Positions 32,155 through 38,392 of a stretch of DNA of 64,000 bases are shown in pieces. A model generated the notes under the pieces. That model saw only the letters and a list, made by a program, of their open reading frames with translations, searched no databases and was not told where the DNA came from. The translations under genes were made by a program, and so were the position numbers. Location of the stretch: contig OZ220727.1 of the NCBI GenBank assembly GCA_965116865.1, forward strand, positions 1,156,798 to 1,220,797, written 5' to 3'. The stretch comes from Acidimicrobiales bacterium (lineage in GTDB: Bacteria; Actinomycetota; Acidimicrobiia; Acidimicrobiales; Aldehydirespiratoraceae). Numbering within the stretch: position 1 is the first letter of the stretch; each line of letters opens with the position of its first letter.

Positions 32155-34188
32155 TCAGGCGACTGCGAAGAGCCGGTTCCCGGCGGCGGGTCGGTGGTGT
32201 CCGCTTGTCGGCGGCGGCGCCGGCGGCGGGTCGGGTGCGTGTGCTGGTCCGTGGCGGGTCTGTTCGGGTGGGTGCAGGGTGTGGTTGCCGTCGGGGTTTT
32301 TGCGGATGCGCCAGTTGTGGTGGTGGATCTTCTGGTGGCAGTCCCAGCAGACGGGGGTCATGTTGTCGAGTTTGGTGGATCCGCCCTGAGCGACGGGTTT
32401 GATGTGGTGGATCTGGCACAGCGCGGGGTGCGCCGCGCAGTGGAAGCATCCGCCGTGGCGGGCCAGCAAGATCTGGCGCTGGGACTCGGTGGCGGTGCGG
32501 ACCGAGTGCGTCCGCCAGATCGGCTTGCCGTCGCGGTCGTACACCAGGCCGGTCAGTCTGGCGTTGCACGAGAGCTCCTCCAGCACAGCCCGCGGCAGCC
32601 GGGTGCCGTCGGGCAACTCCGCGACGAGCCTGCCAGTGGCACCGTCGACATGGGCGACCACACAGATGTCCGCTATCGGCCGGCCACCACCCCCGACACT
32701 GCGGCCGGAGCCGTCTGCTCGGCTGTTGCCGGGACCGTCTGCTCGGCCGCTGGTGTCGTTGTTGCGGGAGCCGCCTGCTCGGCCGCTGTCGTTGTTGCGG
32801 GAGCCGCTGTCGTTGTTGCGGGAGCCGCCTGCTCGGCCGCTGTCGTTGTTGCGGGAGCCGCTGTCGTTGTTGCGGGAGCCGCCTGCTCGGCCGCTGGTGT
32901 CGTTGTTGCGGGAGCCGCCTGCTCGGCCGCTGTCGTTGTTGCGGGAGCCGCTGTCGTTGTTGCGGGAGCCGCCTGCTCGGCCGCTGGTGTCGTTGTTGCG
33001 GGAGCCGCTGTCGTTGTTGCGGGAGCCGCCTGCTCGGCCGCTGTCGTTGTTGCGGGAGCCGCTGTCGTTGTTGCGGGAGCCGCCTGCTCGGCCGCTGGTG
33101 TCGTTGTTGCGGGAGCCGCCTGCTCGGCCGCTGTCGTTGTTGCGGGAGCCGCTGTCGTTGTTGCGGGAGCCGCCTGCTCGGCCGCTGGTGTCGTTGTTGC
33201 GGGAGCCGCCTGCTCGGCCGCTGTCGTTGTTGCGGGAGCCGCTGTCGTTGTTGCGGGAGCCGCCTGCTCGGCCGCTGGTGTCGTTGTTGCGGGAGCCGCT
33301 GTCGTTGTTGCGGGAGCCGCCTGCTCGGCCGCTGGTGTCGTTGTTGCGGGAGCCGCCTGCTCGGCCGCTGGTGTCGTTGTTGCGGGAGCCGCTGTCGTTG
33401 TTGCGGGAGCCGTTGTTGTGGGGTTTGTCTGTTGGGGTGTTGGTGGTGGTGAGGGCGTCGAGGGCGTCGGCCATGCATTGACCGAAATTGCGGCGGCCGG
33501 TTCCGTCGGCGGGGGCTTTCTTGTCGGCGCTGTGCATGCGAGCGGCTTGCGAGCGCAGCCGGTTGGCGACGCGTCTGCCGGTCACCGGGTCGAGCTCGCC
33601 GCGGAGATGGACCATCCCGTCGTCGCCGTCCCAGACACGAACACAGCGCCGCGCCCGCGAACGGCGATGCTGGGACTCCCCGTCGTCGCCGTCGCGGTCG
33701 ACCACCCACCGGCGAGCCTCTCGGGCGAACTGCTCGGGACGCATCGACACAGCCTTCGCCAACAGCTCCCCGTCGCCGTCGACAGCGCTGGCGCCGGCCG
33801 TCTCGGAAGCTTCGGCCAGCCGCCGCGCGTTCGCCGCGGACACCCGCCCCGACTCGACCGCATCACGCGCCGCGGGCGCCTCCCGCAACGCCTCGGCCGT
33901 CTTTAGGTGGCTGCGGGCCTCGCGCCGCGACAACCCGGCCGAACCCGCCAGCACCTCAGCGCCGCCGTCGCCGTGACGCTCACGGCCCGCCACCGCCGCC
34001 GCAGCCGACACCTGCGCAGCCGACAGCGCCGCCATCGCCGACCTCGACACCGCCAGCATCTCACGCAACTCCGAACACGACGCCGCGCCCGCGCCCACCA
34101 GCTCCAGCATCTCGGAGGCAGCGGCCTCGGCCCGACGAGCAGCTTCGATCAACATGCACACAGCATCCCACAGGGCTATGACATCCAC
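32155..34188 (-). CDS. DUF222/HNH endonuclease (REP13E12-type) with about 230-aa internal tandem-repeat expansion
   Basis: The N-terminal region resembles the mycobacterial 13E12 repeat family. The C-terminal HNH segment is CFHCAAHPALCQIHHIKPVAQGGSTKLDNMTPVCWDCHQKIHH. The middle is (GSRNNDSGSRNNDTSGRAGG)n. Confidence 0.8.
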   Translation of the reverse strand: MDVIALWDAVCMLIEAARRAEAAASEMLELVGAGAASCSELREMLAVSRSAMAALSAAQVSAAAAVAGRERHGDGGAEVLAGSAGLSRREARSHLKTAEALREAPAARDAVESGRVSAANARRLAEASETAGASAVDGDGELLAKAVSMRPEQFAREARRWVVDRDGDDGESQHRRSRARRCVRVWDGDDGMVHLRGELDPVTGRRVANRLRSQAARMHSADKKAPADGTGRRNFGQCMADALDALTTTNTPTDKPHNNGSRNNDSGSRNNDTSGRAGGSRNNDTSGRAGGSRNNDSGSRNNDTSGRAGGSRNNDSGSRNNDSGRAGGSRNNDTSGRAGGSRNNDSGSRNNDSGRAGGSRNNDTSGRAGGSRNNDSGSRNNDSGRAGGSRNNDSGSRNNDTSGRAGGSRNNDSGSRNNDSGRAGGSRNNDTSGRAGGSRNNDSGSRNNDSGRAGGSRNNDSGSRNNDSGRAGGSRNNDTSGRADGPGNSRADGSGRSVGGGGRPIADICVVAHVDGATGRLVAELPDGTRLPRAVLEELSCNARLTGLVYDRDGKPIWRTHSVRTATESQRQILLARHGGCFHCAAHPALCQIHHIKPVAQGGSTKLDNMTPVCWDCHQKIHHHNWRIRKNPDGNHTLHPPEQTRHGPAHAPDPPPAPPPTSGHHRPAAGNRLFAVA
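32710..33412. repeat. coding compound tandem repeat (21- and 39-bp sub-units)
   Basis: Alternating gccgctgtcgttgttgcgggagcc and gcctgctcggccgctggtgtcgttgttgcgggagcc blocks span about 700 bp. Confidence 0.9.
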
Positions 34189-34595
34189 CCCCCACAGCCC
34201 CCATCCTCACGCATTTCTCGATACTCCTCCACGCGAAAACTCCCACCAACCACACGATCCCGCGGATCCAGCGCCGCCGTCGCCGTGACGCTCACGGCCC
34301 GCCACCGCCGCCGCAGCCGACACCTGCGCAGCCGACAGCGCCGCCATCGCCGACCTCGACACCACCAACATCTCACGCAACTCCGAACACGACGCCGCGC
34401 CCGCGCCCACCAGCTCCAGCATCTCGGAGGCAGCGGCCTCGGCCCGACGAGCGGCTTCGATCAACATGCACACAGCATCCCACAGGGGTATGACATCCAC
34501 CCCCCACAGCCCCCATCCTCACGCATTTCTCGATACTCCTCCACGCGGAACTCCCACCAACCACGCGATCCCGCGGATCTAGCGCCGCCGTCGGT
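33957..34595. repeat. 311/312-bp tandem duplication covering the 5' end and upstream region of the HNH gene
   Basis: The segment cagcgccgccgtcgccgtgacgctcacgg starts at 33957 and 34269, with a third partial start at 34580. By eye the copies are about 97% identical. Confidence 0.9.
34207..34500 (-). pseudogene. duplicated N-terminal fragment of the DUF222/HNH gene
   Basis: MDVIPLWDAVCMLIEAARRAEAAASEMLELVGAGAASCSELREMLVVSRSAMAALSAAQVSAAAAVAGRERHGDGG is nearly identical to residues 1-76 of the 32155..34188 product. It then diverges and stops. Confidence 0.8.
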
Positions 34596-34662
34596 TGTCG
34601 TGGTCATCTTCGACGACCTCGTCGAGGCCATCCATGCGGTTCCGCGGATCTAGCGCCGCCGC
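34571..34662. repeat. X-Y-X junction repeat, period 71 bp
   Basis: The segment ccgcggatctagcgccgccg occurs at 34571 and 34642. Confidence 0.75.
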
Positions 34663-34719
34663 CGTTGCCGTGTCCGTCGGTTCGGGGCCCCGGGCTGTTG
34701 CCGCGCGCCGACCGGTTGG

Positions 34720-35121
34720 ATGGACGTGACCCGCTTCGGGCGCTGCGCGGCTGCGCCGAACTGCTCTGCTGTCATCGACCCGGCGCCGCGCGGATGGATC
34801 GTCGCGCTGGTGTCGGCCGAGGAGACCGCCGCCCAGACAGCGTTCTGCGACGCCTTCGAAGCCGAGGACCTCGTCGGCGCCGTCGAGGGCCGCCCCGGCG
34901 CCGGCGAACTTCCCGGCAGCGACGAGATCCCCGTCTTGTCGGCGGTCTCCGACAACGGCGCGCCCGCGACCGTCGACGCCGCCGAGGCGTTCATGGCGCT
35001 GTGCTCGACCGTGCAGCACCCCGACCGGCCCGACACTCCCACCGACCAGGTGCCGCAGCGGCGCGTGCAGAGAACGTTGGACGCCCCAACGCCGGGAATG
35101 GCCGGTGCTTCGCACTCATAG
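34720..35121 (+). pseudogene. integrase-core (rve) transposase fragment
   Basis: SAVIDPAPRGWIVALVSAEETAAQTAFCDAFEAE ... VLSAVSDNGAPATVDAAEAFMALCSTVQHPDRPDTPTDQ follows the rve-domain pattern (viD..sR.ivgw ... hSDNG ... P.dN). It lacks both N- and C-terminal parts. Confidence 0.5.
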
Positions 35122-35742
35122 TGTTGGTGGTGTCTTCGATGGGTGCGGGTCTGACTCGGTGCTTCGCTGGCTTCGTGTCTTGCAAACGATCTGTCGGCTG
35201 GTGCCCGTCGGGGACGCGCGCCAGCCGGTCGGAGGGAATGTGACCTGATAGGAGCCTCGGTTCGAGCGCCTTGAGTGTATTGTCGGTTGTTCCGGCCGGT
35301 GGTGCCCAGCCAGCTGGAAGTGGTCCAAAGGAAGGGCAGACCGATTGTGCCAGATGTACAACGAATCGTCATGGGTGGGGTGGACACCCACCGTGACGAG
35401 CGCACGGTAGGTGTCCATCGATTTGGCGGGGCGGCTGCTGGGCACGGCCTCGTTCGCGGTGACACGGGAAGGCTATGGGCAGCTACTGGGGTGGTTGCGC
35501 AGTCTCGGCGGGGTGGAGTGTGTCGGAGCAGAGGGCACCAGCAGCTACGGCGCGGGCCTGGCGCGTCGTCTCGCAGCGGAGGGCGTGAGCGTGGTCGAGG
35601 TGCTGCGCCCCAAGCGCGGGGCGCGCCGCGGGGACAAGTCGGATCCCGCGGATACCGAGGCGGCCGCGCGGGCTGTGCTGTCAGGAGAGGCCACAGCCCG
35701 CCCGAAGTCCGCTGACGGCCCGGTGGAGGCGATCCGGGTGCT

Positions 35743-35850
35743 GCGCGCCGCGCGGCGCTCCGCGGTCAAGGCCCGCACCCGAATCGCTGCTGCCTGCCTC
35801 GCTCACGGCTCACGCGCGCCGCGCGGCGCTCCGCGGTCAAGGCCCGCACC
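35743..35850. repeat. X-Y-X repeat, period 71 bp, disrupting the IS110 transposase frame
   Basis: The segment gcgcgccgcgcggcgctccgcggtcaaggcccgcacc occurs at 35743-35779 and 35814-35850. Confidence 0.9.
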
Positions 35851-36218
35851 GCCGCCGTCAACCAGATCAAAGCGCTGTTGGTGACCGCCCCCGAGCAGAT
35901 CGCCGCCCCGCTGCGGGGCCTTCGCACCGCCGCTTTGGTCGGTGCCTGTGCTCGACTGCGGCCCGATACCGCCGGCGGCGAGGCTGCCGGCGCGGCGAAG
36001 AGGACCATGCGCGGCCTGGCGCGACGGCACCGGGCGCTCAGCGGCGAGATAGACGAGCTCGACGCTGAGATCGCCCGCCTGTGCATGCAGGCGAATCCCG
36101 CTTTGATGGCCGCGCCCGGCGTCGGCGCGCAGACTGCCGCCGCGCTGCTCGTCGCCGCTGGCGACAACCCGCGGCGCCTGCACAGCGAGGCGTCCCTCGC
36201 GGCGCTCTGCGGAGCCGG

Positions 36219-36306
36219 CCCCATCGAGGCGTCCTCGGGGCGCACAATGGCTGTCCTCGTGGGCCGCGACAGCCAGTCGCCCCATCGAGGCGTCCTCGGG
36301 GCGCAC
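36219..36306. repeat. X-Y-X repeat, period 61 bp, disrupting the IS110 transposase frame
   Basis: The segment ccccatcgaggcgtcctcggggcgcac occurs at 36219-36245 and 36280-36306. Confidence 0.9.
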
Positions 36307-36454
36307 CGTGCGCCACCGCCTCAACCGCGGCGGCGACCGAGCAGCCAAACTCAGGACATTAGAGACCGAGCGCTTTGCGCAGTACCTCGTCGATGGCGCG
36401 GCGGCGTCGCAGCCGCCGGACCTGGCCCCTGATCCGCACCGATAGACCGTCTCG

Positions 36455-36765: not shown

Positions 36766-37026
36766 TACCGGCCGAGGCTAGTCAGGGGACCTCCGTCGAC
36801 AGCGTCGTGGTGTTCCCATACGGTGCCGAGTTCGAGGCACCGGCCGAAGCTGGTCAGAGGACCTCCGTCGACAGCGTCGTGGTGTTCCCATACGGTGCCG
36901 AGTTCGAGGCACCGGCCGAAGCTGGTCAGAGGACCTCCGTCGACAGCGTCGTGGTGTTCCCATACGGTGCCGAGTTCGAGGCACCGGCCGAAGCTGGTCA
37001 GGGGACCTCCGTCGACAGCGTCGTGC
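36766..37026. repeat. 72-bp tandem array (3.6 copies)
   Basis: The segment gacctccgtcgacagcgtcgtg starts at 36788, 36860, 36932 and 37004. Confidence 0.95.
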
Positions 37027-38392
37027 TGGAGCTGGCCGACCCGCTCGGCCCGTGGGGCACCCGCCGGGCGGTCAATTGGCGGGCGGCACCCGGCTGGTAG
37101 CGTTCGCTGCGGGGACGGGCGTTGTAGTTCTCCATCCATTCCTGCACGTCGGCGTCGTTGTCGAAGTCGACGCCGTCGGCGATCATGTCGGTGACGATGT
37201 TGGTGGTGGCCGACCTCTTGGCCGGGTCCGCCGCGTTGGCCCTCATATCGCCGAACGCCCCTCGGGCCGCCTCGAGGTTCTCCTGCAACCGGTCCTGCGC
37301 GAGGCCCCGTTGCTGCGCCGCGAAGCGCAGCCATTGCGGGAACACCGACTCGACGACGTCGTGCCACCCCTCGTCGCACACCGACTTGGCCGGTATCCAC
37401 ACACTCACGAACTCCACAACCCTTCGCGGGCTCCAGCACAGCACATCACCGTCCCACCATGCTTCAGAGAACCGGCAGGCCGCCGCGAGCACCGTGTCGG
37501 CGTCGGAGGCGTCCCGCTCGTCGACCACGGCGCGGAACTCCCCGCGGAGGTCGTCGATCTCCTCGTCGGTCAGCCATCGGGGCCCGTGCTCCTCACCACA
37601 TGCCGGCAGCAGCCCGATCCGATGCTCCAACAGCGCCCTCAGCTTCTCGTCCATCATTTCGTCGTCACCGCCGTTGTCGCCGCCGTTGTCGCCGCCATGG
37701 CGGAGCGCCGCTGCGACGTCCTGCACCTCCAGAGCGGCCTCGACGATCACCCGAGCGTCACCCAGGCTGATCTCCTCCACTACCGCGTCGGGCCACTGCT
37801 TGAATTCTGCGGCCACCGTCTCAACCGCCGGGCCGTAGGCGAGACTGCTCGCGCCCTTGCCTGCCGTCGCGTGGACTGCGACGCCCATCCCCCGCACCGC
37901 GCCGTCGGGGCGCTGGAAGTCGATCCACACCGCTCGCTCGTCTCCCCATGGGTCGGTGAGCAGCACCGAGCGGCGCGGCACGACATCGCCGAGCGCCGCA
38001 GCCCAGCCAGGCGGCGGCTCACCGTCACCGGCCAACTGCTCCAACAGGTCATGCGCCTGGGCCCGGCATCCGGGCGGCCCGTACACCCCCATCGCCGCGG
38101 CCACCGCCCCGGCCGCGGCACGGTCGTCGCAGACCTCCGCCGCGGCCAGCACCCTCGGCGCAGCCATCGCGGGATCGCACGCGTAGACGAAGGGACGGAA
38201 CAGCGCCTGTATCGACGACGCCCAATACTCCGCCACGTCGAGGTCGGTGAGGACTGCGGCGTCGGCGGCGTCCGTCAACAGCACCTGTTCCAGCTGCGGT
38301 TCCGGGCCCGCAGCCGCCCTGAGGCGATCGCCGGGCCTGGTCCCTTTCGGCGTGACGCGACCGCCCCCGCAGCGGCGCTTCGGTCGTGGCAT
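36998..38392 (-). CDS. hypothetical protein (Arg/Lys-rich N-terminus MPRPKRRCGGGRVTPKGTRPG)
   Basis: Long ORF with coding-like composition. The preferred start is ATG 38392. The last roughly 20 codons are antisense read-through of the coxL-like fragment and repeat. Confidence 0.6.
   Translation of the reverse strand: MPRPKRRCGGGRVTPKGTRPGDRLRAAAGPEPQLEQVLLTDAADAAVLTDLDVAEYWASSIQALFRPFVYACDPAMAAPRVLAAAEVCDDRAAAGAVAAAMGVYGPPGCRAQAHDLLEQLAGDGEPPPGWAAALGDVVPRRSVLLTDPWGDERAVWIDFQRPDGAVRGMGVAVHATAGKGASSLAYGPAVETVAAEFKQWPDAVVEEISLGDARVIVEAALEVQDVAAALRHGGDNGGDNGGDDEMMDEKLRALLEHRIGLLPACGEEHGPRWLTDEEIDDLRGEFRAVVDERDASDADTVLAAACRFSEAWWDGDVLCWSPRRVVEFVSVWIPAKSVCDEGWHDVVESVFPQWLRFAAQQRGLAQDRLQENLEAARGAFGDMRANAADPAKRSATTNIVTDMIADGVDFDNDADVQEWMENYNARPRSERYQPGAARQLTARRVPHGPSGSASSSTTLSTEVP
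37007..37068 (+). other. 62-bp ectopic copy of an internal coxL segment
   Basis: This segment matches coxL 31604-31665 at about 58 of 62 positions in the same orientation. The matching peptide is TVDSVVLELADPLGPWGARG. Confidence 0.85.

Follow-up and report, generated by a model that had tools for sequence, protein, structure and literature searches.

Results

Two insertions in an IS110 pseudogene

The chromosome of an Acidimicrobiales bacterium contains a remnant of an IS110-family insertion sequence (IS), whose transposase gene is interrupted twice by a structure in which a short segment X stands on both sides of a different segment Y. The remnant lies in a stretch of 64,000 nucleotides (nt), hereafter the window, which is G000:C1:1156798–1220797. 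G000 is the source genome, a single contig of 3.32 Mb with 68.5% G+C, and coordinates refer to the window unless marked G000. X denotes the duplicated target and Y the insert; scar 1 is the 71-bp X1-Y1-X1 and scar 2 is the 61-bp X2-Y2-X2. The coordinates of all features are collected in Table 1.

The transposase gene starts with the ATG at 35371 (MGGVDTHRDE...). Both domains of the family exceed their curated Pfam cut-offs, in agreement with the IS110-type gene that a preliminary description of this DNA had placed here: on 35411–35779, DEDD_Tnp_IS110 (PF01548) reaches 42.6 bits (cut-off 29), and on 35851–36245 Transposase_20 (PF02371) reaches 37.4 bits (cut-off 21.3). The latter match, limited by scar 2 and by the 3′ truncation, covers only profile positions 3–49 of 87. 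Like other IS110-family insertion sequences, the element is collinear with intact relatives over its gene and has a long non-coding left end. It differs from them in being a pseudogene with four lesions, namely a +1 frameshift cluster, the 71-bp X-Y-X, the 61-bp X-Y-X and a 3′ truncation at 36348/36349, all within 35104–36348. The gene has no uninterrupted reading frame, and both X-Y-X insertions shift the frame.

A genome profile search found nine IS110-type matches in G000. The IS110 loci of G000 referred to here are L003 and L006–L009, where L009 is the PF01548 match at the window copy itself. L007 (G000 2174866–2173922) and L008 (G000 1987877–1986623 and beyond) each share 98% DNA identity with the window copy, and the three were compared by three-way alignment. 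The IS110 DNA was also searched against 40 related genomes, and the relatives described below, among them those in the sister genomes G004, G023 and G024, are a sample. Relative to the paralogues, the frameshift noticed earlier near 35405 consists of an extra base and three substitutions; L007 and L008 read DERTAA(A/V)IDLAGR in a single frame there. The 3′ end is indeed missing, as had been noted, with homology to L008 stopping at 36348. Past this point L008 encodes the IS110 C-terminus, NNALWRIATVRL..., complete to NNALWRIATVRLR...LAEIAA and the stop. L007 is itself truncated, at the point equivalent to window 36048. All three copies are therefore broken, and no intact copy of the subfamily is left in G000.

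The first pair of exact direct repeats, 35743–35779 and 35814–35850, is 37 nt long with a spacing of 71; the second pair, 36218–36245 and 36279–36306, is 28 nt long with a spacing of 61. Chance cannot explain exact repeats of 28–37 nt at such spacing. The 37th base of the first repeat is also the first base (C) of the donor sequence described below, and the third X of L008 ends in T, not C. From these bases, scar 1 is best read as a 36-bp duplication with a 35-bp insert. Scar 2 is a 28-bp duplication with a 33-bp insert. Compared with the preliminary description, the starts of the first pair stand at 35743/35814, but the second pair begins at 36218/36279 rather than 36219/36280, and neither insert keeps the 34 bp assigned to it, the second being 33 bp and the first best read as 35 bp.

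Table 1. Coordinates of the IS110 remnant, its lesions and the adjoining features in the window.
Feature	Position	Strand	Evidence or comparison
IS110-family element remnant, left end to truncation	35104–36348	+	Homology to L008 from ~35104 to 36348; Pfam matches; aligns with L003 and L018
Frameshift cluster of the window copy only: one extra base (+1), three substitutions	35407–35414	+	Window GGTAGGTGTCC vs paralogues GGC-GGCGG(C/T)C
X1a, first 36-bp target copy, encodes ..ARRSAVKART	35743–35778	+	Single copy in G004, G023 and L003
Y1, 35-bp insert	35779–35813	+	34/35 identity to donor G000 805583–805617; 35/35 in the L008 form
X1b, second 36-bp target copy	35814–35849	+	Exact repeat of X1a
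X2a, first 28-bp target copy, encodes ..PIEASSGR	36218–36245	+	Single copy in L008, G004, G023, G024 and L003
Y2, 33-bp insert with 8-bp hairpin	36246–36278	+	Fold −9.0 kcal/mol, z −2.95
X2b, second 28-bp target copy	36279–36306	+	Exact repeat of X2a
Truncation junction; IS110 3′ part (~120 codons and right end) lost	36348–36349	+	L008 continues NNALWRIATVRLR...LAEIAA and stop; window diverges
Degenerate open reading frame, possibly a decayed rve (integrase core) fragment, in a multi-copy element abutting the IS110 left end	34720–35121	+	Weak tblastn match
PemK/MazF-type toxin gene remnant, last 15 codons and stop (..RRAIDEVLRKALGL)	36359–36405	−	89% over 46 nt to the gene 3′ end at G000 ~2832830

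Related copies show what the two sites looked like before insertion. Scar 2 is found in the window copy only: L008 has one X2 and then continues directly with CGTGCGCCACC..., so that a 98% paralogue provides the empty site. Scar 1 is common to all three copies of the subfamily and has the form X-Y-X-Y-X in L008. Beyond the subfamily, with IS110 relatives at ~70–77% identity, the alignments on either side of each site share exactly one X. In G004:C85, for example, subject positions 1504–1540 serve both X1 copies and 1907–1934 serve both X2 copies. By translation and alignment, G004, G023 and the distant in-genome L003 read through both sites with a single X and no Y, and the G023 copy (L018) retains an intact frame of 437 amino acids (aa). 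G024 reads through at site 2, and at site 1 its alignment covers only the part downstream of the insertion point. The empty copies read ...ARRSA(V/I)KART-(A/Q/V)A.NQI... at site 1 and ...P(I/V)EASSG..-(V/I)(T/R)RHRLN... at site 2, with the hyphen marking the point of insertion.

Because the related copies have a single X and lack Y, the two Y segments were inserted into a pre-existing IS110 open reading frame (ORF), and the two X segments are duplications of the target; this was the central claim of the preliminary description. Its expectation that in-genome paralogues would be empty held for L008 at scar 2 and for L003 at both scars, but scar 1 is not private to the window copy, being present in L007 and L008. 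The presence of scar 1 in these paralogues does not refute an insertion, since more distant copies are empty. As it occurs in all three copies of the subfamily, scar 1 predates their spread. Neither site is a bona fide CRISPR array: X1 and X2 are IS110 coding sequence, each site has two repeats and one insert, and X1 agrees with the type I-G repeat of the genome at 8/36 positions.

Sources of the inserts

Y1 occurs at one other site in G000, 387 kb away. The single difference from this site is an A-to-C change of the last base of Y1, which is common to the window copy and L007. The segment covers the ribosome-binding-site and start region and the first nine codons of a gene for a 584-aa AAA ATPase (G000 805590–807344). 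Its product ends in ...GQYL and looks mpa/arc-like, resembling the proteasome-associated ATPase Mpa/ARC. The gene is syntenic in three sister genomes with 83–88% identity over 0.6–1 kb, and this conserved synteny indicates that the direction of copying was from the gene to the IS. Directly 5′ of the donor segment in G000 lies TTG, which fits the published TTN protospacer adjacent motif (PAM) of type I-G systems.

For Y2 no match was found in G000, in IMG/VR (exact 33-mer), in metagenome and GTDB contigs (exact 24-mer core) or, allowing up to 3 mismatches, in 38 sister genomes. Y1, which had been taken as unrelated sequence, is a copy of the start of an mpa/arc-like gene.

The resident type I-G system and scar 1

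G000 has one Cas1, which is a Cas4g/Cas1g fusion (NF049935, 753.8 bits). It belongs to a complete type I-G operon encoding Cas4g/Cas1g, Cas2, Cas3g, a Cas3-extension protein, Csb2 and Csb1/Cas7g. The adjoining CRISPR array has 145 repeats of 36 nt at G000 1358520–1369104, ~138 kb past the end of the window. Its spacers measure 35 nt (9), 36 nt (66), 37 nt (31), 38 nt (29) and 39 nt (6), with the mode at 36. Scar 1, at 36 + 35 bp, falls within these dimensions of 36-nt repeats and 35–39-nt spacers. It is highly likely that scar 1 was made by the type I-G integrase.

The type I-G (formerly I-U) Cas4/1-Cas2 of Geobacter sulfurreducens takes up mainly 36-bp spacers with a TTN PAM, mostly from non-chromosomal sources (Almendros et al. 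2019, PMC6547450). The system of G000 resembles it (PMC6547450; also PMC10504553) in the Cas4g/Cas1g fusion with Cas2 and in spacers that are mainly 36 bp. Further likenesses are the TTN beside the Y1 donor and beside the donors of 5/16 inserts of similar size, and the predominance of non-chromosomal inserts (106/133) among the scars of this size described below. In contrast with Geobacter, integration here is into non-repeat DNA that has no detectable likeness to repeat or leader, and many donors carry TAN rather than TTN.

Type I-E systems of sister genomes and scar 2

Cas1e is present in 4/38 other genomes of the genus. At the Cas1e loci looked at in three of these genomes, the adjoining type I-E arrays are built on a 28-nt repeat, GTGTTCCCCGCCC(A/G)TGCGGGGGTGAGCC, that recurs every 61 nt, that is 28 + 33. 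Scar 2 has exactly this geometry. Its target also resembles the repeat: on the minus strand X2 reads GTGCGCCCCGAGGACGCCTCGATGGGGC and matches the type I-E repeat at 16/28 positions, including 8 of the first 10, which ranks third of 70. The hairpin of X2 is about as strong as that of the type I-E repeat (−7.6 vs −7.9 kcal/mol).

The resemblance extends to other targets of 28 bp in the genome, which belong to the 61-bp class defined below. They agree with the type I-E repeat at a mean of 13.0 positions, compared with 11.4 for random genome segments (Mann-Whitney p=5e-14), and none of 500 permuted references scores as well (z 3.7). Targets of the 36-bp class show no such likeness to either the type I-E or the type I-G repeat. 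On these grounds scar 2 was probably made by a type I-E Cas1-Cas2 that the lineage has lost or that the assembly does not contain, a view we hold with less confidence than the type I-G assignment of scar 1.

Similar scars across the chromosome

Throughout G000, exact direct repeats were counted if they were 20 nt or longer and offset by 20–300 nt. They show a sharp excess at offsets 71–75, with the peak at 72, and at 61. After whole-unit tandem repeats and the true array were set aside, two classes were defined, one with a period of 71–76 and repeat lengths peaking at 36–37 nt, the other with a period of 61–62 and a peak at 28–29 nt. There are 133 unique clean events in the 72-bp class and 40 in the 61-bp class. 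A single full-length match elsewhere in the chromosome exists for 27/133 inserts (20%) of the former and 23/40 (58%) of the latter, and 0/144 of the array spacers have a full match. The absence of self-matches from the array is expected if self-targeting is lethal in a working array and harmless elsewhere. The bias of the 61-bp class to self-derived DNA and the mostly non-self inserts of the 72-bp class would fit a Cas4-less type I-E and a Cas4/1 type I-G that prefers non-chromosomal DNA, respectively.

Sixteen inserts of the 72-bp class have a unique donor. TTN lies beside the donor in 5/16, compared with 4.2% expected (p=4e-4), and T[T/A]N in 11/16 (p=2e-10), the latter pattern having been picked after seeing the data. 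One ectopic insert can be linked to the array directly. The array spacer at G000 1361614 and the insert at G000 1107008/1107081 have 29 nt in common with 2 mismatches, and they end at the same boundary on the PAM side. Through this shared protospacer and boundary, the ectopic inserts are tied to the intake that feeds the array; it is the only notable partial match among the self-comparisons of the array spacers. The insert lies in an X-Y-X-Y-X at G000 1106972–1107153, and spacer and insert look as if taken from variants of one invader.

At ~40 events in 3.3 Mb, the odds of a 61-bp-class event in a given 1.25-kb segment are ~1.5%. The occurrence of both classes in one pseudogene probably reflects tolerance, as nothing selects against further hits in a dead gene.

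Three more loci bear on the same types of structure. At G000 2184068–2185080, 17 copies of a 27–30-nt repeat occur with a period of 61–62 and only three different fillers, shuffled and amplified; this looks like a 28 + 33 scar that was struck three times and later expanded by recombination. Within the window, the multi-copy element contains, just upstream of the rve-like ORF, a diverged 71-bp repeat-insert-repeat with arms of ~36 nt and ~5 mismatches (34549–34664), which probably represents an earlier scar of this type. Downstream of the truncated IS, at a distance of 400 bp, a 72-bp unit of the 72-bp tandem class is repeated ~3.6 times (36767–37028), close to the 3′ end of a minus-strand ORF of 482 aa.

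Neighboring features

The degenerate ORF that abuts the IS110 left end had been described as an rve-domain fragment. It has no Pfam match at E≤10, PF00665 included, and 0/17 of the genome-wide rve matches lie there. What stands is a pairwise tblastn match, in which aa 168–251 of an in-genome rve transposase align with 34771–35019 at 31% identity over 86 aa (E=0.005), with ...SDNG... opposite ...TDNG.... It is plausible, from this alignment, that the ORF is a very decayed rve fragment. Many copies of 34269–35113, at 80–98% identity, are present in G000. An intact 416-aa IS110 of another subfamily, L006 (G000 3166493–3169969), is placed between pieces of the same multi-copy element, which suggests that this element is a preferred IS110 target.

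Beyond the truncation, the opposite-strand peptide at 36359–36430 had been offered with low confidence as an inverted IS110 tail. This was rejected: tblastn with the true IS110 C-terminus gave nothing convincing, and the peptide is the C-terminus of a PemK/MazF toxin. The product of the related gene at G000 ~2832830 matches PF02452 PemK_toxin with 70.4 bits (1.7e-19). The truncated IS and the truncated toxin gene abut tail to tail with 10 unassigned bases between them. On the other side, a DUF222/HNH-type ORF on the minus strand (32155–34188) contains a long in-frame array of 21/33/36/54-nt units (GSRNNDSGSRNNDTSGRAGG...), and its 5′ region (34000–34550) has a tandem duplication of 312-bp period with many copies of 96–98% identity genome-wide.

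Discussion

Off-target action of CRISPR adaptation integrases is indicated by the sizes of the two scars, by the Y1 donor and its PAM-like flank, and by the cas genes that G000 carries. The X-Y-X structures are very probably scars left when such integrases (Cas1-Cas2) inserted spacer-sized DNA outside an array. An integrase of this kind would attach each end of a prespacer to a different strand of the target, with the two joints separated by one repeat length, and repair of the gaps would duplicate the target to give target-insert-target. What the data show is the geometry, the empty sites, the Y1 donor, the flank that resembles a PAM, the cas genes and the dimensions of the arrays; the enzymes involved and the sequence of events are inferred.

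The history of the locus can be pictured in five steps. First, the resident type I-G Cas4/Cas1-Cas2 would have put an mpa/arc-derived prespacer, cut out beside a TTG PAM, into an ancestral IS110; the scar would have killed the gene by frameshift and been passed on to all three copies. Second, the scarred element would have spread to a second locus, mobilized in trans or by gene conversion. Third, a segmental duplication would have produced the window and L007 copies, which share the upstream repeat element back to ~34182 as well as the derived C that ends Y1. Fourth, the X-Y unit of L008 would have been duplicated by recombination between X repeats to give X-Y-X-Y-X. Fifth, and in the window copy only, the frameshift cluster and the 3′ truncation would have arisen, and a type I-E-style Cas1-Cas2 would have made the 61-bp integration at a repeat-like site.

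Several observations weigh against this explanation. G000 has no Cas1e, no type I-E array and no sequence within 6 mismatches of the type I-E repeat, and scar 2 therefore needs a system that was lost, is extrachromosomal or was not assembled. No donor is available for Y2, and hence no PAM can be read for it. The PAM signal of the 61-bp class as a whole is weak, with an AA flank in 4/25 (p=0.02), and it vanishes once the events are oriented by repeat similarity. For the 72-bp class, the canonical TTN is found at only 5/16 donors, and T[T/A]N was defined post hoc. Between the 36-bp-class targets and the type I-G repeat there is no similarity (z 0.9), nor do these targets have a motif in common, also after orienting them by PAM.

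Alternatively, both scars, or at least the 61-bp class, can come from another staggered-cut integrase or repair pathway, or from the type I-G machinery using a second, shorter ruler. In favor of this are the lack of any type I-E adaptation gene or array in the G000 assembly, the inconclusive PAM evidence of the 61-bp class, and the different behavior of the two classes with respect to self-derived inserts (23/40 vs 27/133). Nevertheless, we regard it as unlikely, as the 28 + 33 geometry exactly matches the type I-E arrays of sister genomes and the 28-bp targets resemble the type I-E repeat specifically, and not the type I-G repeat. No other integrase is known to flank unrelated inserts of 33–36 bp with duplications of 28 or 36 bp. 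Casposases produce target duplications of ~14–15 bp.

A target duplication also resembles the footprint of a transposon, and Y1 and Y2 might be miniature mobile elements with long target-site duplications, or else the scars might be artefacts of assembly. However, Y1 has no relation to Y2, and neither is related to the ~170 other inserts; no terminal motif is common to the inserts, and many of them each copy a unique piece of ordinary chromosomal DNA. A miniature element was rejected on account of these unrelated inserts and of the many that are unique copies of ordinary genes. Scar 1 is present at three loci, each with its own point mutations, unlike an error of assembly. Taken together, these possibilities are very improbable. 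Partial tandem duplication of native sequence, by replication slippage as in mycobacterial interspersed repetitive units and variable-number tandem repeats (MIRU/VNTR) with Y as original IS110 sequence, can scarcely be credited: G000 is full of locus-specific tandem arrays with 61–78-bp periods and L008 has a true tandem expansion of the X1-Y1 unit, but Y1 and Y2 are missing from five and six related IS110 copies, respectively, which continue across the site with one X, Y1 was copied from an unrelated housekeeping gene's start, and slippage accounts for the step from X-Y-X to X-Y-X-Y-X and not for the origin, for which native duplication is ruled out by the empty sites.

The scars nevertheless have much in common with the MIRU/VNTR minisatellites of actinobacteria, namely a period of 60–75 bp, a locus-specific unit and an expandable copy number, as in L008. 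They differ in that the founding unit is an insertion of foreign or distant DNA with target duplication instead of a native duplication.

Returning to off-target adaptation, such integration has been shown in E. coli over-expressing Cas1-Cas2, and natural cases are only circumstantial, to the extent that the work of Nivala et al. 2018 is recounted in PMC11788318, PMC7054753 and bioRxiv 10.1101/148544. The neo-CRISPR units of Nivala, Shipman & Church 2018, as presented in these sources, likewise consist of a spacer-sized insert outside the array with a repeat-length target duplication, at a site that is re-used and can grow, and scar 2 has the 28 + 33 bp dimensions of type I-E. In contrast with those units, the events described here are natural and occur without over-expression, amount to ~170 clean events per chromosome, fall into two size classes and break genes. 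The major class implicates a type I-G Cas4/Cas1 fusion, and the type I-E-sized class occurs in a genome without type I-E. In the library of papers that we searched, neither natural scars on a genome-wide scale nor off-target integration by type I-G had been reported.

Within 1.2 kb, the locus combines filled and empty sites, a donor with a PAM, a matching resident type I-G system, and a type I-E-sized scar where type I-E is absent, which makes the natural evidence unusually complete. To the genome-wide pattern it adds a scar that was inherited by several IS copies and expanded in tandem in one of them, a housekeeping gene as donor, and a repeat-like target for a scar of type I-E type. By disrupting genes, the adaptation machinery has a real mutational cost, and its scars can expand to tandem repeats. 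The empty and filled IS110 sites are ready substrates for studying the target choice of type I-G Cas4/1-Cas2. Ectopic inserts would sample the intake of the integrases before selection against self-targeting acts, with 58% and 20% self-derived inserts in the two classes compared with none among the array spacers.

It is quite conceivable, although we put it forward tentatively, that CRISPR adaptation integrases act as a genome-wide mutator in this lineage, breaking genes, silencing an IS110 subfamily and seeding locus-specific 61- and 72-bp minisatellites, for which the growth of X-Y-X to X-Y-X-Y-X in L008 is the example, and that the 28 + 33 scars are the fossil record of a lost type I-E system. 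If so, the history of lost CRISPR systems, and an unselected and mostly self-derived intake of spacers, can be read from scars in the chromosome.

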